Counted from the first letter of the stretch, positions 6,817-40,846 are shown. The stretch is DNA of 64,000 nt from Alphaproteobacteria bacterium (GCA_024640405.1 JAHEFB010000009.1:28243-92242), one strand, 5' to 3'. Made by a program: numbers and translations. Notes: generated from the sequence alone by a model not told the origin.

Positions 6817-7338
6817 TTATCCGAAACTGGGCTGTTCCCGCCTGGAGCCCGCTTCAGCGAAAGGGCGCGTGGCCAGGCCTCCGGTTGCATAGTCGCGCTG
6901 ATAGGTTGCCGGCACCGAACCGGCGTGGCGGACCCATTCTGCCAGACTGAAGCGATCTGACACCTCGAAGCTGTCAACTCCGGACTGCAGCAGAAAGCCA
7001 TACTGGTCCGGCAGGAAACCGCCGCGAGCCCGGATGGTGCCGGTGAAGTGTTCGGTGTGGCGAATGCTCCTGGCCTGCGAGAAAGCGCGGCCGTCCGCAA
7101 AGCCGGGGAAGTTGAGGGTGACAATATCGAGCCGCGCCAGATGCGGTGTGAGCACAGCAATATCAGCATCATTCGGCACGTCGACGCCGAGCCCGCGATG
7201 GTCCTCCGGCCAGCCGGCCAGAACCTCTTCCAGGCGCGCCAGCGGCACGATGATCATGCTGCGGTCCCTGGCGCTGTCACCTTCGTGCAGGTTGGACCAG
7301 ACGTCATCGACAAAGGCGTTGTTTTCAATTACCGGCAT
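6817..7338 (-). CDS. DUF934 domain protein
   Basis: FPGFADGRAFSQAR...IRARG..LPDQ...GVDSF pattern; located in the sulfite reductase operon. Confidence 0.85.
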   Translation of the reverse strand: MPVIENNAFVDDVWSNLHEGDSARDRSMIIVPLARLEEVLAGWPEDHRGLGVDVPNDADIAVLTPHLARLDIVTLNFPGFADGRAFSQARSIRHTEHFTGTIRARGGFLPDQYGFLLQSGVDSFEVSDRFSLAEWVRHAGSVPATYQRDYATGGLATRPFAEAGSRREQPSFG

Positions 7339-9010
7339 AAAGAGCCTCCTTGAAAGGAGCCGCACCGAGGCGGCGATAGGTTTGCAGGAATTCCTCACCC
7401 TGCTCACGCACGTTCAGATAGGTTTCGACGACTGTTTCAATCGCGCCGGCAATTTCATCGGCGCCGAAGCCCGGCCCGAGGATCTTGCCGATCGAGGAAT
7501 TTTCGGTGGACGAGCCACCCAGCGTGATCTGGTAAAATTCCTTACCCTTCTTGTCGACACCGAGAATGCCGATATGGCCGACATGGTGATGGCCGCAGGC
7601 ATTGATGCAGCCTGAAATATTGAGCTTCAGGGGACCGACATCGTGCTGTTTCCTGATGTCGGCAAAGCGGGCCGAAATCTCCTGCGCAACCGGAATCGAG
7701 CGCGCTGTCGCAAGGGCGCAGTAATCCAGCCCGGGACAGGAGATGATGTCGCCGATGAGGCCGATATTGGCTTCCGCCAGACCCTGATCCCTGAGCTGTT
7801 GCCAAACCTCGATCAGGTCTCTGGTGCGTACGTGCGGCATGGTCAGGTTCTGCGCATGGGTGACGCGCACTTCGCCGAAGGAATACCTTTCCGCCAGCCG
7901 GGCAACGCCACGCATCTGCTCGGACGTGGCATCGCCGGGAATACCGCCGGCCGGTTTGAACGAGGCATTGACGATGGTGTAGCCCGGCACCTTGTGCGCC
8001 ACCGTGTTGGCGGTGAGCCACTGGCGGAAACCGCGATCAGCCAGCTTCCTTTCCTCGATCTCCGGCACAAAGGCCGGCAGGGTTTCGAAGGCCGGGGCCG
8101 CAAAGTAGGACGAGATGCGGGCCAATTCGCGCGCATCGACTTCAAGTGTCTCGCGTGATGCTTCGGCAAATTCCCTTTCCACCGCGGCGGAAAATGCTTC
8201 CGCGCCCATTTCGTGGACCAGTATCTTGATGCGCGCCTTGTACTTGTTGTCGCGCCGGCCAACCAGGTTGTAGACCCGCATGATGGCGGTCAGGTAGGGC
8301 AGCAGGTCTGCTTCCGGCAGCCAGTCACGCACTGTCACCGCGACCATGGGGGTGCGCCCCTGCCCGCCGCCGACCAGTACTTCCCAGCCGCGTTCGCCGG
8401 CTTCGTTCAAATGCATGCGCAAGCCGATATCATGCACTTTCACCGCTGCCCGGTCGTTAGGCGATCCGGTTACCGCGATCTTGAATTTGCGCGGCAGATA
8501 GGTGAATTCCGGATGCAGGCTCGACCATTGCCGGATCAGTTCGCACACCGGGCGCGGGTCAGCCAGCTCATCGGCGGCCGCACCGGCATAGGGGTCGGTC
8601 GTGGTGTTGCGGATACAGTTGCCGGAGGTCTGGATGGCGTGCATTTCCACACCGGCCAGCATGTCCAGTATGTCCGCGGTTTCCTCCAGCCTGACCCAGT
8701 TGTACTGAATGTTCTGCCGCGTGGTCCAGTGGCCGTAGCCGCGGTCATACTTGTCGGCGATGTCGGCCAGCACGTTTAGCTGGCGGGCCGACATGGTGCC
8801 GTAGGGCACCGCCACACGCAGCATGTAGGCATGCAGCTGATGATACAGTCCGTTCATCAGGCGCATGGGCTTGAATTCGTCCTCGGTAATCGTGCCGTCA
8901 AGGCGGCGGGCTACCTGGTCGCGAAACTGCTCGACACGGGCATCAACGAATTTGCGGTCAAATTCGTCATAGCGGTACATGTTGGGTTCGGGGGTCACGT
9001 GCATGTTCAT
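7325..9010 (-). CDS. cysI: Sulfite/nitrite reductase hemoprotein (siroheme, 4Fe-4S)
   Basis: MYRYDEFD, TTRQNIQ, TSGNCIRN, LPRKFKIA, CPGLDYC and SGCINACG ligands. Confidence 0.93.
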   Translation of the reverse strand: MNMHVTPEPNMYRYDEFDRKFVDARVEQFRDQVARRLDGTITEDEFKPMRLMNGLYHQLHAYMLRVAVPYGTMSARQLNVLADIADKYDRGYGHWTTRQNIQYNWVRLEETADILDMLAGVEMHAIQTSGNCIRNTTTDPYAGAAADELADPRPVCELIRQWSSLHPEFTYLPRKFKIAVTGSPNDRAAVKVHDIGLRMHLNEAGERGWEVLVGGGQGRTPMVAVTVRDWLPEADLLPYLTAIMRVYNLVGRRDNKYKARIKILVHEMGAEAFSAAVEREFAEASRETLEVDARELARISSYFAAPAFETLPAFVPEIEERKLADRGFRQWLTANTVAHKVPGYTIVNASFKPAGGIPGDATSEQMRGVARLAERYSFGEVRVTHAQNLTMPHVRTRDLIEVWQQLRDQGLAEANIGLIGDIISCPGLDYCALATARSIPVAQEISARFADIRKQHDVGPLKLNISGCINACGHHHVGHIGILGVDKKGKEFYQITLGGSSTENSSIGKILGPGFGADEIAGAIETVVETYLNVREQGEEFLQTYRRLGAAPFKEALYAGN

Positions 9011-9351
9011 AGGTCCACAACCTCGCTTGTCGAAAATCCTTGCGCCACCTGCGCCAGATCGGCCCTGACGGTCGGTCCCAGCGCCCGGATGCGTTCACGA
9101 ATGTGAACCGGGCGAATGGCGCCGCTCTCGCGTGACACTTCCACCAGGTAGGCGCCCATGACGATGTTGGCGTGCTCATCCTTCTGGGCGTCGCCGAGCG
9201 CCACGAAGCCTGAGTCCTGGCATTTCAGAACAGCCGCATCGTCGATACCGCGTACCCATTTGTCTTGAAGGTTGCGAAACACCGTATCGCCGGACAAAAC
9301 CTCGTTTGCCGTCACGACATATTCACTGCAGTCTTCGGTTTTATCGTTCAT
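9007..9351 (-). CDS. DUF2849 domain protein
   Basis: VVTANEVLSGDTVF...HIRERIRALGPT. ATGA overlaps with cysG and cysI. Confidence 0.85.
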   Translation of the reverse strand: MNDKTEDCSEYVVTANEVLSGDTVFRNLQDKWVRGIDDAAVLKCQDSGFVALGDAQKDEHANIVMGAYLVEVSRESGAIRPVHIRERIRALGPTVRADLAQVAQGFSTSEVVDL

Positions 9352-10766
9352 GATGCGATCCTTTCCAGGTCTGCGGTTTCAGCCTCCACCTCGATGCGGG
9401 CGGCCAGTACGTCGGAACGCGCCGGATCGAGGCCGACATAGATGACAGCCGGGCCCCTGATGCCGCCAAGCGCCAGTGTCCTGGTCAGGGTGGCAATGCT
9501 GCCGGTGGCGGTTTTCTGATTTTCACGGGTACCGTTTTCCACCACCACGACGGGCGTGTCCCGGGCAATGCCGGCTGCCAGCAACCGGCGCTGGATGTGG
9601 CCTGCCTGACGCACGCCCATATAGATGGAAAATGCAGCACCCGGTTTTGCCAGCGCGGTCCAGTCGTGGTCTGCCGCGCCATCGCCTGCGGTTCCGGTCA
9701 GCATCGTGATGCTGCGGTTTTCACCGCGCCAGGTCAGCGGCAGCCTGATGGATGCGGCACAGCCAACAGCAGCGGTTATGCCGGGCACCACCTCAACCGG
9801 AATGCCGGCCTTGACCAGCGCTGCCTGCTCTTCACCTCCGTGGCCGAATACATATGGATCGCCGCCCTTGAGGCGCACGACTTTCCTGCCGGCGCGGGCA
9901 TGATGTTCCAGGATCTTGTTGATGCGGGCCTGGCTGACCGAGAGTTGGCCGGGCGTCTTGCCGACATCTATGCGCTCTGCATCGCGGCGGGCATAATCCA
10001 GGATGCCTGGACCGACCAGCCGGTCATAGACAATGACATCGGCGTCCTGCAGGCGGCGCTGGGCTTTCAATGTCAACAGGTCCGGATCACCGGGACCGGC
10101 GCCAACCAGGGAAACCGAGCCTGACGCGACGCCTTGTGAACCGGACAATGCCTCGTCGACGGCGCGTTCAAAACCTGCACCGGCATCGCGTTCGAAGGAA
10201 GCACGAAGCCGGCCAAAGAAGAACGACCGCCAGAATTCGCGGCGCGGACTGCCCTTTGCCAGACTGCGGGCAACACGCGGGCGCAGGCCGGATGCCTTTT
10301 CAACCAGGGACCCGACGGACGGCGGCAGCATGGCTTCGAGCTGTGCCTTGATGCCCTGCCCCAGTACCGGCGCAGCGCCTTCGGTGCCAATGGCGATGGT
10401 CAGCGATCCGCGTTCCACAATGGACGGCGTCAGGAAAGAGCACCTGTCCTGCCTGTCGACCACATTGACCGGAATGTTGCGCTCTGTGGCCGCTGCATGA
10501 ACCTGCCGCTCGTCGGCGTCATTCAGCCCGCAGGCAAACACCAGAGAAGCACCGTACAAGTCGTCTGCGTCAAATTCCCGCGGTATCAGGCATGCGCCTG
10601 CCGAGTCGATTCCGGCTGATAGCTCGCGCCCGGCAAACGGGGTGACGACAACAATCCGCGCTGGTGTTTTGGCCATCAGCCGCAGCTTTTGCGCAGCTTC
10701 AGCGCCGCCACCGACAATGACGACGGTCTTTGCTTCGAGATCCAGAAATACCGGATAATAGCGCAT
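9348..10766 (-). CDS. cysG: Siroheme synthase (dehydrogenase/ferrochelatase plus SUMT)
   Basis: N-terminal VGGG Rossmann fold and NVVD; C-terminal VGAGPGDPDLLT, RLKGGDP, PGITAA. Confidence 0.95.
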   Translation of the reverse strand: MRYYPVFLDLEAKTVVIVGGGAEAAQKLRLMAKTPARIVVVTPFAGRELSAGIDSAGACLIPREFDADDLYGASLVFACGLNDADERQVHAAATERNIPVNVVDRQDRCSFLTPSIVERGSLTIAIGTEGAAPVLGQGIKAQLEAMLPPSVGSLVEKASGLRPRVARSLAKGSPRREFWRSFFFGRLRASFERDAGAGFERAVDEALSGSQGVASGSVSLVGAGPGDPDLLTLKAQRRLQDADVIVYDRLVGPGILDYARRDAERIDVGKTPGQLSVSQARINKILEHHARAGRKVVRLKGGDPYVFGHGGEEQAALVKAGIPVEVVPGITAAVGCAASIRLPLTWRGENRSITMLTGTAGDGAADHDWTALAKPGAAFSIYMGVRQAGHIQRRLLAAGIARDTPVVVVENGTRENQKTATGSIATLTRTLALGGIRGPAVIYVGLDPARSDVLAARIEVEAETADLERIAS

Positions 10767-29043: not shown

Positions 29044-29949
29044 TCAAATGTCGCGCCAAAACTTCGGAAGCACGTTCAGCGTTGATGAATGGCTGGTAGA
29101 ACGGTCAACAGCATTGCTGCGCTGAAGCCCCCATTTTCCGGCACCAAGAAGTCTGTCATAGCCGGTCATGCGCGCTTCATCGAGGTCGTTGAGCGTACCC
29201 AGGGTTGTTTGCAGCAGTTTGCAGGTTTTCCTCCAGGGCGCCAGATCGTCTTTTACAAACAGCGAGCGATGAAACTCGAGCCAGTATCGCAATCGTTTCA
29301 GGTCTTTGCGGAAGGTGTGGTAATCGCCATCCGTTTCAAGCACCCGGGACAGGGTTCCAAACCGGTAAAGCGTCTTCAGGGTATCGTCCATGATTCCGGG
29401 AACAATAACCAGGCATGATTGGTCGAGAACTCCGGCGTCGGACCGGCGCCACCTTTCATTTTCCATCAGCCGGGAAAACTCGCCAACCAGATTCAACACA
29501 CCCAAATTTGCAATTCGGGAACGTGCATCGCTGGAGATCTCGGACCGATTATCCTGCATCTCAGTCGTGTCAATGCCTGCTGTTTCAAGCCACTCGATAA
29601 CCACGTCCTGCTGCCGAACCGGATGCAACATCGCCATGATGCTTTTCAGGTTTGCCGCGACCGGCCGGCATTCGCGCTGCACCGACCATGGTTTCATACC
29701 ACGTAGCAGCACACGCAGACGACGCGCAGACACTCTCGATTTGTGAGCCGAAACTGCATTTCCAGTGGCTGCGAAAACCCGCAAATTATGCGTTAGATCC
29801 GAAATGTTTTTTGCTGCAATCACACGAAACGAGATTGCTCCTGTCATGGCCGGATCAAGTCTGATACGCGCAGGACTGCGCGCACGCGACATAACCGGGA
29901 AGGTTGAAGAACTATCGGGCGGTATGAGGCGAACGTTCATTGACTGCAA
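29044..29949 (-). CDS. CHAD domain protein
   Basis: HKSRVSARRLR, HTFRKDLKRLRY and LQTTLGTLND motifs. Confidence 0.82.
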   Translation of the reverse strand: MQSMNVRLIPPDSSSTFPVMSRARSPARIRLDPAMTGAISFRVIAAKNISDLTHNLRVFAATGNAVSAHKSRVSARRLRVLLRGMKPWSVQRECRPVAANLKSIMAMLHPVRQQDVVIEWLETAGIDTTEMQDNRSEISSDARSRIANLGVLNLVGEFSRLMENERWRRSDAGVLDQSCLVIVPGIMDDTLKTLYRFGTLSRVLETDGDYHTFRKDLKRLRYWLEFHRSLFVKDDLAPWRKTCKLLQTTLGTLNDLDEARMTGYDRLLGAGKWGLQRSNAVDRSTSHSSTLNVLPKFWRDI

Positions 29950-30088
29950 ACTTTCAGCAGAGCACTACGAATTTATGTGAATTCCTTAGGTCCAGCGCAT
30001 TGGAGGTAATCAAATTTATGGTTTGTTGACTGATTCCGTCAAAAACCGCACTGCTCCAAGCGCCGTTCATGCCGCAGCAACATGTCAT

Positions 30089-30129
30089 AAACAAAACAAC
30101 CCCGCGCATTGGGGCAATGCGCGGGGTTG
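30089..30129 (-). terminator. Rho-independent terminator, 15-bp perfect stem CAACCCCGCGCATTG/CAATGCGCGGGGTTG
   Basis: Perfect inverted repeat; TTTTGTTT follows on the minus strand. Confidence 0.8.
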
Positions 30130-30202
30130 CAGACTCTAGAGAAAACCTGAGCTCGAAGCGAGGGGGGAGCTTCTTTGTGGCCAGGCTCAAATCAATCAGG
30201 TT
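30089..30202 (-). ncRNA. Candidate ~110-nt trans-acting sRNA with anti-SD loop
   Basis: Minus strand: GCTGGC-N17-CTATAC promoter (30236-30208), hairpin GAAGC-UCCCCCCUC-GCUUC, then a 15-bp terminator stem and U-tract. Confidence 0.6.
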
Positions 30203-30746
30203 GACGGGTATAGCAGGGGATTTGGGGCCCGCCAGCTCCTGATCGACCATTCTCCAATACACGTCACAAACGCTCAATCTGAATCTCTGCGTTCTATACG
30301 CGTCCACAGCGTGATCGCTTTATGTGAGCGAACTTCGCTATTAAGCTTTTAGAAGTAGCAATTTGTTAACCATTGGTCAAATCACGATTTACGTGAGGGT
30401 ACCTGCCCTATTTGTAGGCAGAACAATCCGGATAGAATTCCACCCAAGAAAGCAGGTCCCGGCGGATGTTTTAACCGCACGGGACCATTGGCTTTTTTGC
30501 CTTTACCCGGTTAGAAAACCAGGCCTGTCATAATGCGGACATTGCTGTCCGGAATTTCATATCTTTTTATGTTTGATTGGCTGCAATCAGACACCCAGGT
30601 CCAGGCGATAACGCTTTTCCGACTGGTTGACTACAGCGAAACTTGCTTAGGCGGAGTCATTTTTGTAGACCTCCTTGCTTAGCGGATAGGCAAATGATGC
30701 CCCTTACCGCCGGCTGTCGTCAAATCACGAATAATGTCAGTAATGC

Positions 30747-31448
30747 TTACGTTTTATCCAGCCAGTCGCGCATGGCCGCATTCACCACCTCCGGCTCTTC
30801 CAGCGTAGAAAGATGTCCGCAACCCGGCACTATATCCAGCACTGAGTTCGGAACTTGTGCTGCCATTTCGACTGCGCATTCAGGCGGGGTAATCACATCC
30901 AGCTCACCAGTCAAAATCAATGTCGGGCAGGTAATATCCGACAGTCCCGGCAGGTAGTCGGGCCGGCCCAGAATGGCTGCCATCTGGCGTCGGAATTTCA
31001 TTTCGCCGGTGTCAGTTGCCATTTGAATGATAGTGTCACGCAATTCCGGATCAGCCGCATTGCCGGGAGCAATCAAGCGATGCAACAGTATGTCCGTTGT
31101 GATCGCAAGAAAGTTTCCTTCATCTGCCATCGCGATCAGCTGATGCCGGGCGGCAGTCTGTTGGGCAATATCCAGCCTGGCTTTGCCGTCCAGCAAAGCC
31201 AACCGCGTGACGCGACCGGGCGCGAGGGACATTATTTCGAGGGACAAATACACACCCATCGACAACCCGGCCAGTGCGAAACTATCCGGCGCATCGGCCA
31301 GTAGCTGAAGGGCAATTTCGCGCATGTCACCGGCGCAAGTATGATCGGCCACTATAACCTCGCGGCTGCCTGCAAAAGTGTCTGTCTGTGATTTGAACAA
31401 GGCGCCGGTACACATGAGACCGGGGATCAGAAGCAGCGGTTCAGTCAT
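30747..31448 (-). CDS. Alpha/beta hydrolase
   Basis: LIPGLMC, GLSMG nucleophile elbow, catalytic D (GELD) and H (CGHL). ATGACTGA coupling to oxyR. Confidence 0.9.
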   Translation of the reverse strand: MTEPLLLIPGLMCTGALFKSQTDTFAGSREVIVADHTCAGDMREIALQLLADAPDSFALAGLSMGVYLSLEIMSLAPGRVTRLALLDGKARLDIAQQTAARHQLIAMADEGNFLAITTDILLHRLIAPGNAADPELRDTIIQMATDTGEMKFRRQMAAILGRPDYLPGLSDITCPTLILTGELDVITPPECAVEMAAQVPNSVLDIVPGCGHLSTLEEPEVVNAAMRDWLDKT

Positions 31449-32331
31449 TCCAGCCATCCAGCATCAAATGAGCCAACGCCATATAGTCATCACGCAGCGG
31501 CGTTGACCTGCGCCAGGCCATGGCAACCGTTCTTGAGGGTTGTTCGCCGGCGAACCGTAACAAGCGGATGCGGTTATCGGGTACCTGCTCGCGAATACAC
31601 ATCTCAGGCAACAATGTAACACCATGCCCATTGGCAACCATTTGCACAATTGTACTAAGCGAAGATGCGCCCATCGCGCGCGACAGTTTCGAAGCGCCAA
31701 TATTGCAATAGCTCAGAACCTGTTCACGCAGGCAATGCCCCTCACCCATCAGCAACAGCCGGTCTTCGCCAATCAGGGCCGGCGTTGCCAGCATGTTCGG
31801 TGTCAGTTGTTCGCTGTCCCTGATTGCCAGCAGGAAGTTGTCAACGAACAGCTCCTGTACCTCGATCTCCGGTGATTTCAACGGTAACGCCGCAACGATC
31901 ACATCAAGTTTTCCCGCTTTCAGTTCATCAACCAGGCTTTCGGTAACCGTTTCGCGCAACCGCAGATCAACGTCCGGGTAACGGACCGACAACCCGGTGA
32001 GCATGACGGGAAGCAAGTAAGGCGCGATAGAGGGGATGGCTCCCAGGCGCAATACTCCACTTAGCGTGCCGGTTCGCTGGCGGGCGAAATCTTCGAGGTC
32101 AGACACCTCTGACAAGATCACTCTGGCGCGCCGCACCGCCTCGACGCCTTCCGATGTCAACGACACCTGTTTGGGCGACCTTTCCAGCAACGCCACACCC
32201 CATCTTTGCTCAAGTTCCTTGATTTGCTGAGACAGAGCCGGCTGGGTAACCGAACACTCCGCGGCAGCTTTGCCAAAATGACTGTGGCGGGCGATCGCCT
32301 CAAGATATCTGAGCTGGCGCAGGGTTGTCAT
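31441..32331 (-). CDS. oxyR: LysR family hydrogen peroxide sensor OxyR
   Basis: LysR HTH (TQPALS); GHCLREQVLSYC gives the C-x8-C redox pair; ASSLSTIVQMVANG. Confidence 0.85.
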   Translation of the reverse strand: MTTLRQLRYLEAIARHSHFGKAAAECSVTQPALSQQIKELEQRWGVALLERSPKQVSLTSEGVEAVRRARVILSEVSDLEDFARQRTGTLSGVLRLGAIPSIAPYLLPVMLTGLSVRYPDVDLRLRETVTESLVDELKAGKLDVIVAALPLKSPEIEVQELFVDNFLLAIRDSEQLTPNMLATPALIGEDRLLLMGEGHCLREQVLSYCNIGASKLSRAMGASSLSTIVQMVANGHGVTLLPEMCIREQVPDNRIRLLRFAGEQPSRTVAMAWRRSTPLRDDYMALAHLMLDGWND

Positions 32332-32337
32332 GGTTCA

Positions 32338-32375
32338 GATAATAACAACTTATCGCTTGGGTAGCACAATTTTGT
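32338..32375. promoter_or_regulatory. OxyR-type operator ATAA-N7-TTAT-N7-GTAG-N7-TTGT directly upstream of oxyR
   Basis: Same spacing as the ATAG-N7-CTAT-N7-ATAG-N7-CTAT OxyR consensus; first half is a GATAA/TTATC palindrome. Confidence 0.55.
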
Positions 32376-32433: not shown

Positions 32434-34155
32434 TCAGTTCGGGGAAACGATTACCTCCAGCAACGCCTGACGTTTTTCACGGGTGACAACATCTATCGCA
32501 TCCATGATTGCGCCGGACAGATCAGAACCGTCTTCGACACGGCGGCTCCATCCTCTGCTGGCCGCTGCAATCATGGTGAAGTCAGGAACCGGCGCCAGCG
32601 ATGACAAGGGAATGGTGTTTGCGCGAGAGGCATCACCTTCCGGATACATCATCAATGTGGATTTGCGTACGGCGTTCCAGACGCCATTGTTGAATACCAC
32701 GGTCAGGAGCGGGAGATCGTGGGCTTCGGCTATCTGATGGCAGGCGACCGGATTGGCGAACATGTAGGAACCATCGCCAACGCAGGCAACGGCGACCTGG
32801 TCGCGAATGGCCAGTGACGCGCCAAGGGCGGCAGGCATTCCCCACCCCAACCCACCTGCCAAAGCGTGCGAATGATACCGATTGCCATCGGAAAACCGCA
32901 TGAATTGCGGTTCACACCCGAGTTCAGAAAAGACGCGTGCATCATCGGGCAGGCAATCCGACAGCGTCTTGCTGACGAAGGCTGCAGTCATGACACTGCC
33001 TTCTTCAAGGACCGCCTCTTCAACTGACGTTTTTCGCCGTGCTTTTGACCGCTTCGCCATGCTGGCGTGACACTTTTTCAGATCGTTGACAAAGGTATCC
33101 TTCTGCCCCAATAGCGCGTTTTCCAACGAGATCAGGGCGGCCGCCGGGTTTGCGGTCAGGTTGACTGTCGAACGAAAGCCCCTGACCGGCACACGGGAGA
33201 ATAACGGGTCTGCTCCAATCTGGATGACGGTTGCCGCAGGGTTGGGTTTGACCCAGGTATCGAGCCAGGGAACCAGGGCATCCAGCACGATGACCAGATC
33301 GGCGTCCTCCAGCATCACCGCCGGGTCAAACCCCATGTGCATCGCATGGTCAGTCGACAGCACATTTGCAGATGGCCAGAACTCACAAACCGGTATCGCG
33401 AATGCATCACAGAAAGAGTCAACTGCATCAGACAACCGGCCTTCCGGGTCGCCGCGTTGCGCAATCAGGAGTGGTTTTTTTGCTGATTTCAACTTCTCCA
33501 CAATAACAGCGACTGTTTCGGGATCGGGCGCGGGCGGCGAGGCCACCGCATGGCGCGTCGGGCCAATGGGCACATCTTGCGGCCATTCCCCACCCAGAGC
33601 TTCTCGAGGCAAGCCCAGATAGACCGGACCGCGCGGCTCGCTCATGGCAATTGCGTAGCCCCGGTCCACCAGATCCGCCGCCTGCTCCGGCAGTTTCAAC
33701 TCATATTCCCATTTGACGAACTCCCTCACGATTGCAGATTGATCGCGCATATCCTGACCCCAGTGTATCGGCAGGCTGCGAGCACCATGGCGAGCGCCCT
33801 CAGTTGCAGGAGTGCGCCCTGCCATCAGGAAAATCGGGATATTGTCACTCGCCGCATTGATGGTGCCCATCAGTGCATTTGCGAGCCCAACGTTGACATG
33901 AACCATCACCGCCTGAGGCTTGCCGGTCGCCAGATAGTAGCCATGGGCCATGGCAACCGCAGCATTTTCATGTGGTGCAATGACAGGTGTCGGGATTGGC
34001 AAATCAGTTTTCTGGTTCTTCGAGTAAATCTCGATCACTGGAGCGAAATCCGTCCCGGCATTGGCAAACAGATAGTCGATGTGGTGTTGCTTCAATCGGA
34101 CGAGAATGGCCTCCGCCGCCGTTTCCGGTACAAAGTCATCGGGCAGTAGCACCAT
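32434..34155 (-). CDS. Thiamine diphosphate-dependent enzyme (acetolactate synthase large subunit/decarboxylase-like)
   Basis: PHENAAVAMAHGY (catalytic Glu); GDGSYMF...NN ThDP-binding motif. Confidence 0.92.
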   Translation of the reverse strand: MVLLPDDFVPETAAEAILVRLKQHHIDYLFANAGTDFAPVIEIYSKNQKTDLPIPTPVIAPHENAAVAMAHGYYLATGKPQAVMVHVNVGLANALMGTINAASDNIPIFLMAGRTPATEGARHGARSLPIHWGQDMRDQSAIVREFVKWEYELKLPEQAADLVDRGYAIAMSEPRGPVYLGLPREALGGEWPQDVPIGPTRHAVASPPAPDPETVAVIVEKLKSAKKPLLIAQRGDPEGRLSDAVDSFCDAFAIPVCEFWPSANVLSTDHAMHMGFDPAVMLEDADLVIVLDALVPWLDTWVKPNPAATVIQIGADPLFSRVPVRGFRSTVNLTANPAAALISLENALLGQKDTFVNDLKKCHASMAKRSKARRKTSVEEAVLEEGSVMTAAFVSKTLSDCLPDDARVFSELGCEPQFMRFSDGNRYHSHALAGGLGWGMPAALGASLAIRDQVAVACVGDGSYMFANPVACHQIAEAHDLPLLTVVFNNGVWNAVRKSTLMMYPEGDASRANTIPLSSLAPVPDFTMIAAASRGWSRRVEDGSDLSGAIMDAIDVVTREKRQALLEVIVSPN

Positions 34156-34190
34156 TATGGGTCTCCAATTCTAATTATCTCAATCAACAC

Positions 34191-35507
34191 TCATCGCCGG
34201 ATGAGATCGGGTAGCCAGGTTGCCAACTCCGGAAACATGACCAACAGCGACAAAACCGCCAATGCCAAGAAAATAAACGGTATCGCAGCCCAGTAGACCT
34301 GGCCGAGCGTGATCTCGGGCGGTGCTACGCCTTTCATCACAAATATCAGCAATCCGAATGGCGGGGTTGTAAAACTTATCTCCATGACCACCAGCATCAA
34401 CACTCCAAACCACAGGAGATCGATCCCGGCACTCTGGGCCAGTGGAATGAAAAACGGCAGCGTGATCATGATCATGCTGACCTGATCCATGAAAGCACCG
34501 AGGAGAAGCAGCACAATCAACATCGCCAGCAGCAATGTCATGGTGCCCGAGTTCAGCTCCGTAATCACTTTCAACAAACCGTTGGCTGCCCCTGAAAAAG
34601 CCAGTATTTGCGAGAAGGTCACAGAGGCGGCAATGATGAAGAGGATCATCACGGAAATCTTGGCGGTCTCGGCAATGGCTTTTTTCATGGCCGCAAGACT
34701 GAACCTGCCATAGCCGACAGCAGCAACAACCGAGGCGACGCTACCCAGGGCAGCCGATTCTGTCGGCGTTGCCCAACCGCCCAGAATGCTGCCCACAACA
34801 ACTACGAATATGCCCATAAGTGGCACTACATGGGTGAGCAAAGGCCGCCATCTTTGCCACGCGGTGGTCGGTTCAACATCATAGGCCGGTGCCAGTGCCG
34901 GAGTAACACGGCAGCGTGCAATAATGTAGATCAGAAAACTTGCGGCCATCATCAGGCCCGGAATGATGCCTGCAATCAGCAGTTTGGCTATCGATATTCC
35001 GGCGAGACTTCCCAGCAACACCGCCAGCGCAGAGGGCGGTATCAGCATGGCAATACTGCCGGTTGCCATAATCGGGCCCATCGCAAGGGTGGGATGATAC
35101 CCGCGTTTCAGCATATCCGGCAGGAGTGCACTGCCCAGCACCGCAGTGTTTGCAATGGTTGAACCGGACAGGGATGAGAAAACAGTTCCTCCCAGGACCG
35201 AAACGATGGACAGCCTGCCCGGCACTCGCGTGATCAGCCTGTCAATTGCATTGATGGCAGAAAACGCGACCCCGGTCTGGAAGAGAATTTCACCCATCAG
35301 GAGAAACAGGGGGATCGGGGCCAGCGAAAAATTGCTGACAGACGCAATTGTATTGCGGACAACCTGGTCAAGTCCGATTTCGCCGCCCAGAAATACGAAA
35401 GCGCCGACAAGGTTCACACCCAAAAATGCGAACGCAACCGGCAGGCCAGTCAGCATCAACACCAACAATGTGCCAAGCAGCAAAAACAGGGCAGAAGACC
35501 AGTCCAA
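34191..35507 (-). CDS. dctM: TRAP transporter large permease DctM
   Basis: TTG start after AAGGAG; IPLFLLMGEIL, GSTIA, LIPPS, TPTESAA and TPPFG motifs. Confidence 0.93.
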   Translation of the reverse strand: MDWSSALFLLLGTLLVLMLTGLPVAFAFLGVNLVGAFVFLGGEIGLDQVVRNTIASVSNFSLAPIPLFLLMGEILFQTGVAFSAINAIDRLITRVPGRLSIVSVLGGTVFSSLSGSTIANTAVLGSALLPDMLKRGYHPTLAMGPIMATGSIAMLIPPSALAVLLGSLAGISIAKLLIAGIIPGLMMAASFLIYIIARCRVTPALAPAYDVEPTTAWQRWRPLLTHVVPLMGIFVVVVGSILGGWATPTESAALGSVASVVAAVGYGRFSLAAMKKAIAETAKISVMILFIIAASVTFSQILAFSGAANGLLKVITELNSGTMTLLLAMLIVLLLLGAFMDQVSMIMITLPFFIPLAQSAGIDLLWFGVLMLVVMEISFTTPPFGLLIFVMKGVAPPEITLGQVYWAAIPFIFLALAVLSLLVMFPELATWLPDLIRR

Positions 35508-35518
35508 ATCGTTGCTCC

Positions 35519-35995
35519 TTAACTCGCCGGCCTGATCAAACGTAAAGCGAACTCGATAATCAACAGGCCTCCCGAAATCACAACGATCAGAAAGAACGGC
35601 CATTCCGGCACGACCAGTTCCTTGTATATCAAGTCACCCCTGTGCACCGCGTCTGCCGTTACCCGTAGTGCGTACCAGGTCAGAACTGCAGAAATCAGCA
35701 TGCCCAGACAGTCGGCAGATATGGCAAGCAGTCTGCTTGCGGCTGGCGGCAATGAGCTCAACAAGAGATCAACCCGTACATGGGCGTTTTCACGCAATAC
35801 CCAGGGTGCCGCCAGAAAGGTCGCGGCAAACAGCACGTATTCGGATACTTCCAGAAGCCAGGTGAAATTTCCGACGCCAAGGTTTCGGATGGCTACGTCG
35901 ATGGATATCAGGACTGCCAGGCAAGCCAGCGCAACCCCGGCGGAAAACCCGAGCATGCCGACGAGTGCGGCATGAATTCTAGTAATTGCCTGCAT
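35519..35995 (-). CDS. dctQ: TRAP transporter small permease DctQ
   Basis: DV..R...W..EVSEY, HVRVD motifs; 4 TM segments. Confidence 0.9.
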   Translation of the reverse strand: MQAITRIHAALVGMLGFSAGVALACLAVLISIDVAIRNLGVGNFTWLLEVSEYVLFAATFLAAPWVLRENAHVRVDLLLSSLPPAASRLLAISADCLGMLISAVLTWYALRVTADAVHRGDLIYKELVVPEWPFFLIVVISGGLLIIEFALRLIRPAS

Positions 35996-36054
35996 CGTAC
36001 AGCGGCTCCTGAATTGAAAGCGAGCCGCCGTCGCGGCTCACTTACCAGCGTAAA

Positions 36055-37014
36055 TTACTTGCTCAGGAGTTCTTTCAGTTTCGGTCCCGTCTCCGGATTT
36101 GCCTTGATGAACTCGGCCCATCCAGTTTCGTAAGCCTGCTTGATATAGGCATCGCCCTCTGCATCGCTGAAGGTGATGGTCTCAATGCCTTTGTCGGCCT
36201 GTTTTTTCATTTCCGCCGCATTGATCTCCCGGTCTTCACTGCACAGCCCTTCCATGAATCCAGCAGCATCCTGGAGTATTTTCTGCTGTTCGGCATCGAG
36301 CTTGGTCCAGGCATCGTCATTCAGGATCACTTCCACGGAAGCGCGGTAAAACGGCGGGTCGACACGATACTTCGTCACCTCATGCCATCCCAGATCGAGA
36401 ACGCCTTGTGTCGGCCATCCATAGCCATCAACGGTACCTCGTTCGAGGGCAGTGTAGACGTCGCCCGGCTTGGTCCGGATCAGGCTTGCACCCATAGCGG
36501 CAAAAAAGGCGCGGTAAATCGGCGTGGTCCGGATCTTGAGGCCGCTGAGGTCGCGTTTGTCGATTTTCTTGTTGAGATACAAGTGGAACGGCACACAGTC
36601 TTTCTGCCGGGCCAGATGATAAGCGTTCATGCGTTTCTTGTGCAGGTCGTTGGTAAATGCCCATGCTCCGTTTTCGCGCTCTTCTGAAATTGTAAAGGCG
36701 CTGAGCTTGAATACATCGGCTTCCGGCATCAGCTTTGTGTAAAACGCACCCGGCAGGTTACCTATGTGGACCACCCCGGTGCGAACCGCATCTCCGAGCT
36801 GGAACGGATTCATGACCTTGCCGCCACCGCCCTTGTAGTCAATGCGCAGCTTGCCCTTGCCAAGCTCGTTGGCCTTGTCGATAAAGCGTTCGAAATTCTT
36901 GGAAAACGTTGTTCCCTCGGCAAATGCGCTGACTGCCGACAGCATGGCTTCCTCGGCGGCCGCAGGCCACGACAAGAGCCCGGCAAGTGCTACTCCTGCA
37001 ATTAGACGTTTCAT
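36055..37014 (-). CDS. dctP: TRAP transporter substrate-binding protein DctP
   Basis: Signal peptide; GLKIRT (carboxylate-binding Arg); VYTALERGTVDG. Confidence 0.92.
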   Translation of the reverse strand: MKRLIAGVALAGLLSWPAAAEEAMLSAVSAFAEGTTFSKNFERFIDKANELGKGKLRIDYKGGGGKVMNPFQLGDAVRTGVVHIGNLPGAFYTKLMPEADVFKLSAFTISEERENGAWAFTNDLHKKRMNAYHLARQKDCVPFHLYLNKKIDKRDLSGLKIRTTPIYRAFFAAMGASLIRTKPGDVYTALERGTVDGYGWPTQGVLDLGWHEVTKYRVDPPFYRASVEVILNDDAWTKLDAEQQKILQDAAGFMEGLCSEDREINAAEMKKQADKGIETITFSDAEGDAYIKQAYETGWAEFIKANPETGPKLKELLSK

Positions 37015-37052
37015 GACTTCCTCCAGATGTTGTTGTTGCATGTCCTGTTAAA

Positions 37053-38177
37053 CTACTGATCCGGCACACCAATCGCCACGGGCCTGACGGGTGACCCAGC
37101 GTGACCCTTCTCGCGCAGCGGCAGTATCATTGTGCACGAGGTCCAAACCTTGTCTTTGGCCAGTGCTCCCAGATTGGCGTTTTGTATCTGGTGTATCCCG
37201 GCCACTGCCAGATTGTAGTGATGAATATAGAAGGGCAAGCCTTGATCCATGCCCTGTGGTGGTGGTGATTTGCGGGCCAACTGGCCGTCAGCGACCGGAT
37301 CGGTGAAGGGATTGTCCAGCGCCAGTAGAACGATCTTGCGCTCAGCCAGATATTCTGCGGCGTCAATCGCCAGGCCGGGTCCCTTGGTGTAGTAAGTCTT
37401 GTCCTCATCCGGATCAGACCAGTTATCTCCCCAACCGGTATAGATATAAACAACGTCGCCCGGCAGTATTCCGCGCCAGTCGAGGCCTTGCACCTTCAGC
37501 ATGGCTTCTATGTCCGCTTTGGTGACAAGGGTACCGGGTTCAAGAGTTTTTCCGCCACCGACATGTGTCTTTGCATCAAGCAACACAGCCGACGTCACGA
37601 TCGGCGGTACATTCTCGATGCCCAGCTTGAGCAGTGGAGAATCCGGTGAAGGTTTCACGTCCGACTGACTGTAATTGCCATAATACCGGGCCGACCCGAC
37701 CGGGGCATTTCCTTCTCCGTCCCACGGCTTGTCGTAATAGGCAAAGTGCCCAAGGGCATCCATCTGGGTACCCTGGGCACCGGGTTCTCCACCGTTTACC
37801 TGCTCGCCGTTAAACACATGCCGGGTACCGGGTATCGAAACCGAAGGAGTATAGGTAAACGACAACGGGCGGCCGAACGGTGAGGCAGGCATGGAATTGG
37901 ACCTCAGGTGATTGAGTTCGTAAACCCTGGAACTGGTATTTGCCATGTGCGCAGAACATCTCAGCCAGGTCCCTGCTCCCAGCGTATTTGCCATGCCTTT
38001 CTGGTCTCCAGCAGGCCACGGCCCTGTCGGGACCAGTGATTTCGACTGTTCTACCAGTGCCTTGTGTTGATCAGATGCTGCGAGCGATGGCACAGGCGAC
38101 GCCACAGCAAAACAGAGCGCTGTTGCGGCAAAGCCTGCACAACGCTGAACATTGGTCAAATATGCCGGGTAACTCAT
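37053..38177 (-). CDS. Exported cyclase family protein (kynurenine formamidase/isatin hydrolase-like)
   Basis: GGGAGG SD; signal peptide; GTQMDALGH, PGDVV.I.TGW, GPGL and NANL motifs. Confidence 0.85.
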   Translation of the reverse strand: MSYPAYLTNVQRCAGFAATALCFAVASPVPSLAASDQHKALVEQSKSLVPTGPWPAGDQKGMANTLGAGTWLRCSAHMANTSSRVYELNHLRSNSMPASPFGRPLSFTYTPSVSIPGTRHVFNGEQVNGGEPGAQGTQMDALGHFAYYDKPWDGEGNAPVGSARYYGNYSQSDVKPSPDSPLLKLGIENVPPIVTSAVLLDAKTHVGGGKTLEPGTLVTKADIEAMLKVQGLDWRGILPGDVVYIYTGWGDNWSDPDEDKTYYTKGPGLAIDAAEYLAERKIVLLALDNPFTDPVADGQLARKSPPPQGMDQGLPFYIHHYNLAVAGIHQIQNANLGALAKDKVWTSCTMILPLREKGHAGSPVRPVAIGVPDQ

Positions 38178-38378
38178 TGCTTCCTCCCGCGAAGTTTTCT
38201 TTGAAAGTAAATATGAAACTCGACAAGGCGTCCATTTGTTTGTGCCCTGGAGAAATAGCATCACGTTCACAATCCGGTAACGCCGGTGCTTGCGTCCGCG
38301 CAAATCCGTCACCTAGTATGGCCCACCAGGTTAGACAGATGACCTTGTTGAACAGGCTACCAGGCCCCTGCCCCCTCG

Positions 38379-40097
38379 ATGCTGACCCGAACAGACATAT
38401 TTCCTGACCCCGACCTGCCTGATGCTGCGCAGGTTATTGCCCAGGGCAATGCCATGGCAATGGACTGGCAAGTTCAGCCTGGTGCATTTCTGCAACATCA
38501 CGGCGTATCCTGCGAAGCGGACTACAAACGCCGGCACACAGATGAAGCAAAACTGATGCAGCATGCCCAGATCGGTTGGCGTGATCCGGAAAAGTCCCGC
38601 CGGGCCTGGACGGACATCCACGAGCGTTGCGCAGCAGGCGATGTCACCATCGACCGCTACGGCATCTGCCTCGACTGGTCGATGGGTGTTCCGCGGGATC
38701 AGCGCGGAGACGCCATGCGCGGCACCGGCCTGATCCTTGATACCCCCGAGCAGTTTGCGGACCTGACCAGGGGCGCTCCGGTTGCACCGCACTTTGGAGA
38801 TTTTGTCCTGGGGTTTCCGGCCTCGGTTGAAAACACCTGTGCGGCCCTGAACGCAGGTTCCACCAGCATTGGCAATCTCGGGCAATACTTTACCTTTCGA
38901 TTGCAAAACCACTCCGACGACGTGGTCTGCACGACAGCCACGCTGACCTCACTTGCATTGATTGGCGCACAACCGGTTGAGATACTGGTTCATTCAAATC
39001 TGGACGATGGGTTTGCAGCCCTGTTTGGCGATCTATCGAGCACGCTTGGGGCGGTATTGCTGGAGCGCCACATCGGCCGGCTTGTCGGCGTCAAGGTCAG
39101 CCATTGCTGGGGCCATCATTTTTCTGATCCGGTTCGGCGGCTGGCCTTTCACATTGCCCTTGCCGAGGTTTCGGATACGGCGGGCACAATGATTTACGGC
39201 AACACCACCAGTTATCGCGGACCACGGGAGGAAAACTTTGCCAGCTTGTCCAGCTACCTGTCGGTGGATATTGCCGGCCAACTGCTGTCACCGACCGGAC
39301 ACGCCATCAATCCGGTGCCGGTAACCGAAAACGAACGCATTCCCGACGTATCGGAGGTCGTCGAAGCGCAAAGGTTTGCAGCCCGCCTCATCGAACATCA
39401 AACCAGGCAAATGCCGCTGCTGAACCCTGCCCCTGCCCGATCTCTGGCTAAACGTCTGGTTTCCGGCGGACGGCAATTCTTCGACAATGCCATAAGCGGC
39501 CTTACCGAAGCAGGCATTGACACAAACAACGCGTTTGAGATGCTGCTGGCAATCCGCAGGCTGGGCGGCAGGCGCATGGAACTGATGTTCGCCGCGAAAG
39601 GCGACCCGATTGCCTCTGACATTGCCGAGGAAGTTGAAGAGATGGCTCACAGTCATCTGGCTCGGGTAGCCGGGGAAGACCGCCGATCACTTTCCAGACT
39701 GGAGCCGCGCGTTCTGACCGCCACCACAGACGTGCATGAACACGGCAAGCTGGTGCTGGACAAGGTGTTGTCCGGTGCTGGTGTTCGTTTGATTGACGGC
39801 GGTACTTCTGTCGAGCCACAGGAACTGGCATCCAGGGCACGAAGCGAGCGGGCCGACGCCATCGCCTTGTCTACCTACAACGGTGTGGCATTGAACTATT
39901 ACAACGCATTGCGCGAACATCTTGGCAATCAGATTCCGGTTCTGATCGGCGGCAGACTCAACCAGGTGCCGGACAGTTCCAACACGTCACTGCCCGTGGA
40001 TGTTGCAGATCAACTCGCAGGCGCAGGTGCCATTGTCTGCCGCGAGATAGAAGATGCCGTTCCAGCCCTGCTAAACGCTTTGAAGGAAACAACATGA
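38379..40097 (+). CDS. Cobalamin-binding protein, single-chain mutase-like (large N-terminal domain plus C-terminal B12-binding domain)
   Basis: C-terminal TDVHEHGK (DxHxxG), ALSTYNG and IGG B12 signature; no radical SAM CxxxCxxC. Confidence 0.8.
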   Translation: MLTRTDIFPDPDLPDAAQVIAQGNAMAMDWQVQPGAFLQHHGVSCEADYKRRHTDEAKLMQHAQIGWRDPEKSRRAWTDIHERCAAGDVTIDRYGICLDWSMGVPRDQRGDAMRGTGLILDTPEQFADLTRGAPVAPHFGDFVLGFPASVENTCAALNAGSTSIGNLGQYFTFRLQNHSDDVVCTTATLTSLALIGAQPVEILVHSNLDDGFAALFGDLSSTLGAVLLERHIGRLVGVKVSHCWGHHFSDPVRRLAFHIALAEVSDTAGTMIYGNTTSYRGPREENFASLSSYLSVDIAGQLLSPTGHAINPVPVTENERIPDVSEVVEAQRFAARLIEHQTRQMPLLNPAPARSLAKRLVSGGRQFFDNAISGLTEAGIDTNNAFEMLLAIRRLGGRRMELMFAAKGDPIASDIAEEVEEMAHSHLARVAGEDRRSLSRLEPRVLTATTDVHEHGKLVLDKVLSGAGVRLIDGGTSVEPQELASRARSERADAIALSTYNGVALNYYNALREHLGNQIPVLIGGRLNQVPDSSNTSLPVDVADQLAGAGAIVCREIEDAVPALLNALKETT

Positions 40098-40846
40098 TCA
40101 AGACAATAGGGGTTATCGGGACAGGCCATCTCATCAAGCACATGATGCCCGCCATGATCAAAACCGGCGCTCGCTTCCTGATTTCAGAACGCGGTCGCGA
40201 AACATCTGCTGAACTGGCCGACCTCTATGATGTCGAAATATGCAAAGACAACCAGTACATCGTCGATCACTCCGATATCCTGATACTCGCAGTCCGTCCT
40301 TTCGATGCATTGACGGTATGTGACGGGCTGTCATTTCCGGATGGCCAGACGGTGTTGAGCCTGTGCGCAGGCATTGCTTCATCAGATCTTGCGCCAGCCG
40401 TTTTGCCAGCAAGCCTGGTCATGGCGATGCCGGTGGTCGCTGCCCAGTTCGGCGAAAGTCCGACACTGATTTTTCCGGATGACCCGGAATGTCGAGCGCT
40501 ACTGGAATTCTGTGGTCCCGTATTGGCCCTGAAGGCAGAAGACAGCTTTGCACCGGCAGCAACAATTGCGTGTTACTACGGCTGGGTGCAGGAACTGATA
40601 TCGCAGATGTCGGACTGGGTGTCGGAGCACGGTGTTGATCCAGAAACGGCACGGCTGCTGACTGCCCAGATGACGCGCGCGGCCGCGACGACAGTGAGAG
40701 AACGCCCGCAATCTCCAATCGACGAACTTGTCGCTGAACTGGCCACGCCGAGATCCTTCACTTTGAAGGGACTTGAGGTCCTGCGTGCGGCTGATGCATT
40801 CACGCCCTGGCAACAGGCAGCGGATTCCCTGTTGAGTTCCGATTAA
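40094..40846 (+). CDS. Pyrroline-5-carboxylate reductase-like NAD(P)-dependent oxidoreductase
   Basis: IGVIGTG, ILAVRP, SLCAG and AMPVV; dimerisation domain; ATGA overlap with the upstream gene. Confidence 0.82.
   Translation: MIKTIGVIGTGHLIKHMMPAMIKTGARFLISERGRETSAELADLYDVEICKDNQYIVDHSDILILAVRPFDALTVCDGLSFPDGQTVLSLCAGIASSDLAPAVLPASLVMAMPVVAAQFGESPTLIFPDDPECRALLEFCGPVLALKAEDSFAPAATIACYYGWVQELISQMSDWVSEHGVDPETARLLTAQMTRAAATTVRERPQSPIDELVAELATPRSFTLKGLEVLRAADAFTPWQQAADSLLSSD

Follow-up and report, generated by a model that had tools for sequence, protein, structure and literature searches.

Two gene units side by side in an alphaproteobacterial chromosome: a candidate family of adenosylcobalamin enzymes next to a TRAP transport cassette

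In a DNA stretch of 64,000 nucleotides from an alphaproteobacterial genome (Alphaproteobacteria bacterium, GCA_024640405.1, JAHEFB010000009.1:28243-92242; in the following "the window", meaning this stretch at its full length), seven genes between positions 32,434 and 40,846 form two divergent arms. A preliminary description, made from the sequence alone, had interpreted them as one catabolic island. Our analysis favours two functionally independent units that stand side by side and are juxtaposed in one lineage: a pair consisting of a 572-aa cobalamin (B12) protein and a ProC-like reductase, and a five-gene cassette encoding a secreted cyclase-family protein, a tripartite ATP-independent periplasmic (TRAP) transporter and a thiamine diphosphate (ThDP) enzyme. 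Including the roles proposed below for both units, we put the probability of this reading at about 0.62. Gene content, predicted fold, B12 motifs, conservation and the independence of both units are what the analysis shows; the AdoCbl (adenosylcobalamin) chemistry, the sequence of steps and the substrates are inferred. The B12/ProC-like pair is the part of the region that is worth study; the cassette belongs to known kinds. All seven open reading frames (ORFs) were found where the preliminary description had placed them and their domain assignments were upheld by Pfam and NCBIfam. Its interpretation as a single island is only partly supported, because the parts were right and their integration was wrong. 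The features of the region are:

32434-34155, minus strand: ThDP enzyme, 573 aa, NF006203/PRK08327, with three thiamine pyrophosphate (TPP) domains and benzoylformate decarboxylases as solved kin
34191-35603, minus strand: DctM, TRAP large permease (PF06808 263 bits, TIGR00786 297 bits)
35519-35995, minus strand: DctQ, TRAP small permease (PF04290)
36055-37041, minus strand: DctP, TRAP solute-binding protein (PF03480; 272 bits to PDB 4MNC/4MNI)
37053-38177, minus strand: secreted cyclase-family protein, 374 aa, first gene of the cassette (PF04199 72 bits; QGTQMDALGH)
38178-38378, no strand: divergent intergenic region of 201 bp between the cyclase and B12 genes (alignment)
38379-40097, plus strand: cobalamin enzyme, 572 aa, of an undescribed family (C-terminal PF02310; predicted barrel and Rossmann domain)
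39729-39746, plus strand: DxHxxG motif D451-V-H453-E-H-G456, base-off/His-on cobalamin ligand loop (translation)
40094-40846, plus strand: ProC-like NAD(P)H oxidoreductase, 250 aa (PF03807, F420_oxidored; PF14748, P5CR_dimer)

Separate histories of the pair and the cassette

Relatives of the B12 protein were detected in at least 469 species by a scan with one genome per species, from which the best 80 were kept as representatives. The species with relatives include the cultured Nisaea nitritireducens DSM 19540, Tistlia consotensis USBA 355 and Cypionkella aquatica NBRC 111766. Neighbouring genes were then counted by tblastn over 85 loci (numbered with the prefix L), five of which duplicate representative species. 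The ProC-like gene adjoins the B12 gene in 57 of the 85 loci, corresponding to 53 of the 80 representative species. The cyclase, TRAP and ThDP genes were found in three of these species only (L007, L008 and L013), which are close relatives with about 80% identity and show the arrangement of the window. Four homologues of the B12 protein with 82, 71, 59 and 56% identity are all encoded together with a ProC-like gene and without the genes of the cassette, and in each case the pair sits between parE and the DEAD-box helicase/suf operon, as in the window. This order of the core chromosome (parE, pair, DEAD helicase, suf) is held in relatives down to about 55% identity.

In other close relatives (L006 and L009 to L012) a LysR gene lies directly divergent from the B12 gene and the cassette is missing. 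The intergenic region between both genes still carries traces of it in two cases. At L011:9732-10000 a remnant of 37 codons corresponds to the C-terminus of the ThDP enzyme (68% identity) and is found in the right place and orientation, and at L012:9519-10000 there are two cyclase fragments, covering aa 44-100 (63% identity) and aa 213-240 (79%). These remnants in relatives of Anderseniella are independent deletions of the cassette. The presence of decayed remnants in relatives without the cassette shows that it existed in the ancestor of this clade and decayed in several descendants; the cassette was thus lost repeatedly, whereas the B12/ProC-like pair stayed intact. A recent horizontal insertion of the cassette was considered and rejected, because its GC content of 0.556 equals that of the window (0.562) and because the remnants show the ancestral presence.

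The cassette is also found away from the pair. In another metagenome-assembled genome (MAG) of the Hyphomicrobiales (L089), all five genes are intact and in the same order between unrelated genes, with products that are 85, 86, 66, 80 and 70% identical to those of the window; this MAG carries the B12/ProC-like pair on a different contig (L020). Single members of the cassette occur in further contexts. Orthologues of the cyclase-family protein (70-78%) are encoded beside Rieske dioxygenase subunits (L086), beside a transporter of the major facilitator superfamily, or alone, and orthologues of the ThDP enzyme (54-69%) beside genes of the protocatechuate pathway (pca) or beside a HalD-like gene.

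The preliminary description had proposed one pathway across both arms, leading from periplasmic hydrolysis over TRAP import, B12-dependent rearrangement and NAD(P)-dependent redox chemistry to ThDP-dependent C-C cleavage. Some observations are in line with this proposal: in the window as well as in L007, L008 and L013 the arms lie next to each other in divergent orientation with 201 bp between them, this adjacency is old within the clade according to the remnants, and both lineages with the cassette encode the pair too. We nevertheless regard it as quite unlikely, since the pair is kept without the cassette in about 50 species, the cassette decays next to an intact pair, it occurs intact and unlinked to the pair in L089, and its genes are found singly elsewhere. 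Both arms occur together in one narrow clade only, comprising the window and three of the 80 representative species. A cassette that is intact elsewhere, decayed in close kin and absent beside most pairs is thus in substance the situation that the preliminary description itself had named as speaking against its proposal. It was right in stating that this set of genes belongs to no pathway described so far. The region also illustrates that two gene groups standing close together and divergent in one genome may owe this to an accident of their lineage.

A Pfam-less family of cobalamin proteins with oxidoreductase partners

The 572-aa protein is best read as a member of a new Pfam-less family of base-off/His-on cobalamin enzymes that, according to its structural model, would be built like the radical isomerases dependent on adenosylcobalamin (AdoCbl). 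PF02310 is its sole Pfam match, and the barrel is without any match even at E<=10. The N-terminal domain is not covered by any Pfam or NCBIfam model, also when ten divergent family members are included. A confident AlphaFold2 model calculated from a 35-sequence alignment (predicted local distance difference test score (pLDDT) 91, predicted TM-score (pTM) 0.92) shows a predicted (beta/alpha)8 barrel that extends over roughly the first 320 residues, followed by a linker of helices (aa 324-441) and by a Rossmann B12 domain (aa 443-572). In the latter, the motifs of base-off/His-on binding are present and invariant in 35 homologues: the DxHxxG loop listed above, S498-T-Y, which is SxL-like, and G524-G525. 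A barrel of the type that packs against the corrin face and holds the substrate in AdoCbl isomerases is found in the predicted structure. At the C-terminal ends of all eight predicted strands, polar residues are invariant in the 35 homologues: H62/R68, R93/D99, H138/D141, N166/Q169/Y170, H205/D209/D210, H242/C243/H246/H247, Y273/N275/T276 and H308/N311/E317. Such clustering at strand ends is what one would expect for an active site in a barrel.

The comparison of the model with the PDB by Foldseek yielded the alpha chains of methylmalonyl-CoA mutase (MCM) as top matches (2e-13), followed by ornithine 4,5-aminomutase. The best matches to the barrel only were GlmE (3e-8, target-normalised TM-score (TMt) 0.54-0.56, about 425 columns) and the alpha subunit of lysine 5,6-aminomutase. 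All of these leading matches are adenosylcobalamin isomerases. The B12 domain was aligned to GlmS of E. coli by hhalign with a probability of 95%. The label "B12 mutase-like" given to the protein in the preliminary description was appropriate.

Several known systems share features with this protein. Glutamate mutase is similar in having a homologous B12 domain (GlmS) with base-off/His-on DxHxxG binding and, with GlmE, the closest single-domain fold match to the predicted barrel (TMt about 0.55); a GlmL-type reactivase as neighbour is shared in a sister subfamily only, and the substrate would likewise be a free small molecule and no CoA ester. In contrast to GlmE/GlmS, the parts of both subunits are fused in one chain and there is no sequence similarity to GlmE; the GlmE family profile (PF06368/TIGR01503) gave no Pfam match at E<=10. 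A methylaspartase partner is also missing, the coupling is to a ProC-like gene instead, and there is no GlmL nearby in this lineage. The MCM family, to which the isobutyryl-CoA and ethylmalonyl-CoA mutases also belong, gave the best full-length Foldseek matches and has its domains in the same order, with the barrel first, then the linker and the Rossmann B12 domain at the C-terminus. However, the protein has no PF01642 match, is about 150 aa shorter than members of the MCM family, lacks a MeaB-type G-protein chaperone nearby and shows no sign of CoA binding. The 2-methyleneglutarate mutase (MGM) of Eubacterium barkeri is reportedly a single chain, roughly 600 aa long, which ends in a B12 domain with DxHxxG and is accompanied by a nearby gene for a MutL-like repair protein. 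The overall layout would thus be the same as in the present family. Unlike the MGM locus, there are no genes of the nicotinate pathway near the pair. In a survey from 2009, no MGM homologue was found in the genomes sequenced by then (PMC2667541), which argues weakly against a close relationship.

A published description of the B12-protein family was not found in our literature search. In databases its members are named "cobalamin-dependent protein", "hypothetical" or, wrongly, "MCM cobalamin-binding subunit". When the first 440 residues were used as query against a collection of 1.8 billion cluster representatives, 369 clusters (50% identity) were obtained; the full-length members among the 150 best ones listed share the same architecture, and some split versions of about 430 aa occur too. 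Pairwise identity between subfamilies falls to 20-40%.

Distant relatives give further hints by their gene neighbourhoods. Proteins of the PF13941 MutL/GlmL type are encoded within glutamate mutase operons. In one family representative (P0175), the B12 protein is fused to a PF13941 "MutL" domain and a gene for a short-chain dehydrogenase/reductase (SDR) lies directly upstream. A divergent sister subfamily, about 30% identical to the protein of the window, was collected with an 8-sequence alignment (454 metagenome hits, of which 80 loci, L095-L174, were fetched from soil and rhizosphere metagenome contigs). After its B12 gene, a full-length PF13941 GlmL/MutL gene (E 9e-130) is found in 55 of the 69 fetched loci with a downstream ORF, and an SDR gene precedes the B12 gene in 24 of 71. 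The conserved operon consists of genes for the SDR, the B12 enzyme, the GlmL/MutL-like protein, a metallophosphoesterase, a permease of the amino acid-polyamine-organocation (APC) type for amino acids and a TetR regulator, and it is a second uncharacterised B12 system. In Gammaproteobacteria MAGs (L080, L082, L083), an M20 deacylase (ArgE/DapE-like) is encoded directly upstream of the B12 gene and a ProC-like protein downstream. In Denitrobaculum (L076, L077), genes of a Dpp/Opp-type ABC transporter lie upstream of the B12 gene, and the directly adjacent upstream gene encodes, as read by eye, a 2-hydroxyacid dehydrogenase. What recurs beside the B12 enzyme is an NAD(P) oxidoreductase, taken from families that are not homologous to each other (ProC-like, SDR, 2-hydroxyacid dehydrogenase); a small hydrolase is often near, and a reactivase in some lineages. 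For the PcaD-like alpha/beta hydrolase encoded at 30747-31457 of the window, homologues (40-75% identity) stand beside the pair in 21 of the 85 loci, in divergent, convergent or upstream position; in L003 the homologue is convergent and downstream of the pair. This recurrence suggests a functional link to the pair.

The ProC-like protein has the full two-domain architecture of pyrroline-5-carboxylate reductases (P5CR), given by PF03807 and PF14748, and the NAD(P)-binding motif GxGxxG. Together with the fact that the best NCBIfam and the best PDB matches are P5C reductases, this would be compatible with a housekeeping proC whose position after the B12 gene is meaningless. We consider this explanation very unlikely. 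The scores lie far under the equivalog cut-offs of ProC (TIGR00112 85 bits against 196.75; NF005063 122.6 against 254), and the gene overlaps the B12 gene by 4 bp of start and stop codon, the ATGA coupling of the preliminary description that could be read directly from the sequence. Unlike ProC it is operonic with a B12 enzyme, an adjacency that spans 45-79% identity in the 57 loci and includes Gammaproteobacteria, and non-homologous oxidoreductases take its place in other subfamilies. By comparison with the family cut-offs, the protein is no bona fide ProC. Conservation of the P5CR substrate loop among the ProC-like orthologues is too low for interpretation.

As a working model we suggest that the barrel of the B12 enzyme holds the substrate and the Rossmann domain the cofactor, and that AdoCbl would start radical chemistry. 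The enzyme may then rearrange an amino acid or another small polar acid, or catalyse an elimination from it. Its ProC-like partner would use NAD(P)H to reduce the product, a carbonyl or a possibly cyclic imine, or it would oxidise the substrate beforehand; in many genomes a neighbouring small hydrolase of the esterase or deacylase type may supply the substrate. Tentatively, and at slightly less than even odds, we propose that the family founds a group of unrecognised AdoCbl radical enzymes, i.e. carbon-skeleton or amino mutases or eliminases whose substrate would be an amino acid or another small acid in free form, with many subfamilies that are each paired with an NAD(P) oxidoreductase of their own and in some cases also with a GlmL-type reactivase.

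As the main alternative, a different type of B12 chemistry was weighed, in which the protein would be a methylcobalamin-dependent methyltransferase composed of a TIM-barrel substrate:corrinoid methyltransferase fused to a corrinoid domain. The family profile matches the cobalamin domain of MetH at 1e-9 and corrinoid proteins weakly, and in the model a helical segment of about 100 residues precedes the Rossmann domain, similar to the cap in corrinoid proteins; PF02607, the cap family, is however not matched, and neither is any MT1 or MT2 family in Pfam or NCBIfam. Zinc could be bound by a cluster that is invariant in the alphaproteobacterial subfamily, H242-C243-x-G-H246-H247, but this cluster is not kept across the wider family. 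In addition, single-barrel Foldseek matches at E<=1e-3 are the AdoCbl-isomerase barrels of GlmE and lysine aminomutase alpha, next to one weaker match, a fusion of hexulose-phosphate synthase and isomerase; the sister subfamily has a GlmL-type reactivase as its standard neighbour, and neither a second methyltransferase nor a RamA-like activase is encoded nearby. We therefore rate a methyltransferase as unlikely, and keep it in consideration because the B12 domain resembles that of MetH and because the His/Cys cluster could bind zinc.

To our knowledge, the enzymes that depend on adenosylcobalamin number only about a dozen, and surveys of microbial "B12 dependence" take no others into account. 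If our proposal is true, a new reaction type would be added to this short list. If the protein is an active B12 enzyme, the cobamide demand of Alphaproteobacteria from soil, sediment and marine habitats is under-counted and there is a new radical rearrangement to discover. The family ranges over hundreds of alphaproteobacterial and other species. The conserved oxidoreductase partner offers a spectrophotometric readout via the consumption of NAD(P)H.

The cyclase, TRAP and ThDP cassette

The components P, Q and M of a TRAP transporter are encoded together (PF03480, PF04290, PF06808). DctP aligns over its full length with Bpro_4736, a TRAP binding protein from Polaromonas (PDB 4MNC/4MNI) whose ligand in 4MNC is reportedly benzoylformate. 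The carboxylate-binding Arg that had been pointed out in a "KIRT" motif is indeed present and aligns with "KIRI" of 4MNC. The ThDP enzyme is a full member of NF006203/PRK08327 (636 bits, cut-off 456), a family without an assigned reaction, and contains all three TPP domains (PF02776, PF00205, PF02775). Its closest solved kin are benzoylformate decarboxylases (BFDC, MdlC; 1e-28), which have the same three domains, followed by 2-hydroxyacyl-CoA lyases. Unlike BFDC, it stays far below the respective equivalog (NF005485, 155.7 bits against 493), and genes of the mandelate pathway are not present.

The first gene of the cassette had been described as a cyclase-family amidohydrolase. The match to PF04199 is real, but the label is weaker than stated, as the canonical metal motif is replaced: in place of HxGTHxDxPxH, the protein has A-Q-G-T-Q-M-D-A-L-G-H in the region of residues 134-145. 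Both histidines of HxGTHxD are thus substituted by glutamine, invariantly in 22 orthologues, which form a subfamily of very high conservation (64-86% identity). Among solved structures, its only relative is the uncharacterised 5IBZ. Kynurenine formamidase and isatin hydrolase also belong to PF04199; in contrast to them, the protein has about 370 aa with a signal peptide and an invariant QGTQMD in place of the metal motif. Isatin hydrolase makes isatinate, a 2-oxo acid, and a hydrolase producing a 2-oxo acid would fit the logic of the cassette.

As the simplest scheme we suggest that the substrate taken up and decarboxylated by the cassette is most likely an aryl 2-oxo acid. In such a scheme, the secreted cyclase-family protein would release or modify this acid in the periplasm, DctPQM would import it as a monocarboxylate, with acids like benzoylformate or isatinate as the most likely type, and the cytoplasmic ThDP enzyme would decarboxylate it. 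By analogy to isatin hydrolase, the conversion of isatin to isatinate may be an attractive example.

A number of observations weigh against the interpretation as two independent units with the roles given here. Both lineages with the cassette encode the pair somewhere in their genome, so that the cassette may depend on the pair without the reverse being true. About one third of the closest species have no adjacent ProC-like gene. Genes for a reactivase or an adenosyltransferase are absent near the pair in the window and in the alphaproteobacterial loci, in a search that covered the 85 loci and reached as far as 10 kb to either side. The hhalign comparison of the 35-sequence profile of the barrel with GlmE of E. 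coli O157 gave a probability of only 1%, and the B12 domain scores about equally against MetH and against mutases.

Adjacent genes, gene starts and further observations in the window

The features next to the seven genes are:

30747-31457, minus strand: alpha/beta hydrolase, 236 aa, PcaD-like, below the cut-off, with a 17-nt overlap with the oxyR-like gene
31441-32331, minus strand: OxyR-like LysR regulator, outside the seven-gene set (NF008361 below the cut-off; GHC-x8-C)
32339-32353, no strand: LysR-type T-N11-A box ATAATAACAACTTAT, immediately before the start codon of the oxyR-like gene, kept in relatives

The preliminary description had noted that no regulator lies inside the island. None does, but the OxyR-like LysR gene directly abuts the ThDP gene. 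The protein has the LysR architecture and OxyR as its best NCBIfam match (NF008361, 231.7 bits against a cut-off of 329), and the redox-active Cys pair GHC-x8-C is present as 'GHCLREQVLSYC'. As a regulator of the island it was rejected because of its OxyR-like character. In the relatives without the cassette this gene is divergent from the B12 gene, and the pair may there be regulated by peroxide.

The divergent gap had been given as about 200 bp, and it measures 201 bp when the ATG at 38177 is taken as the start of the cyclase gene. This is the most likely start, giving 374 aa and an N-terminus that resembles a signal peptide; a longer GTG-start ORF reaching 38312 is probably unused. According to the alignment, the part of the gap that is proximal to the B12 gene is conserved with relatives lacking the cassette. 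No Rfam element, including riboswitches, was matched in the window or in this gap, and scans for promoters and terminators yielded matches at chance level. The true start of DctM is probably located about 95 nt downstream of the listed ATG, near 35507, because the Pfam match begins only at residue 43; the DctM orthologue in L089 has 438 aa.

Cobalamin biosynthesis, transport or adenosyltransferase genes were not found among the window ORFs scanned. Between parE and the hydrolase gene, a CHAD-domain protein (29044-29949, minus strand) and a family-less ORF of 117 aa (29954-30307, minus strand) are encoded; the CHAD gene occurs in no more than 4 of the 85 loci, all from close relatives. Long ORFs (184-199 aa) run antisense to the B12 gene (38331-38912, minus strand), the ThDP gene (33550-34149, plus strand) and the DctM gene (34608-35162, plus strand), and they are most likely no genes but artefacts of the GC content of 56%. 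The window as a whole is ordinary core chromosome of a bacterium that comes from a sediment metagenome and is related to Anderseniella, with parE, the suf operon, tyrS, prfB, PBP1A and genes for siroheme and sulfite reductase. The sole tetrapyrrole-related genes among the scanned ORFs are those at 7325-10766 (minus strand), encoding a sulfite/nitrite reductase and a CysG-type siroheme synthase.

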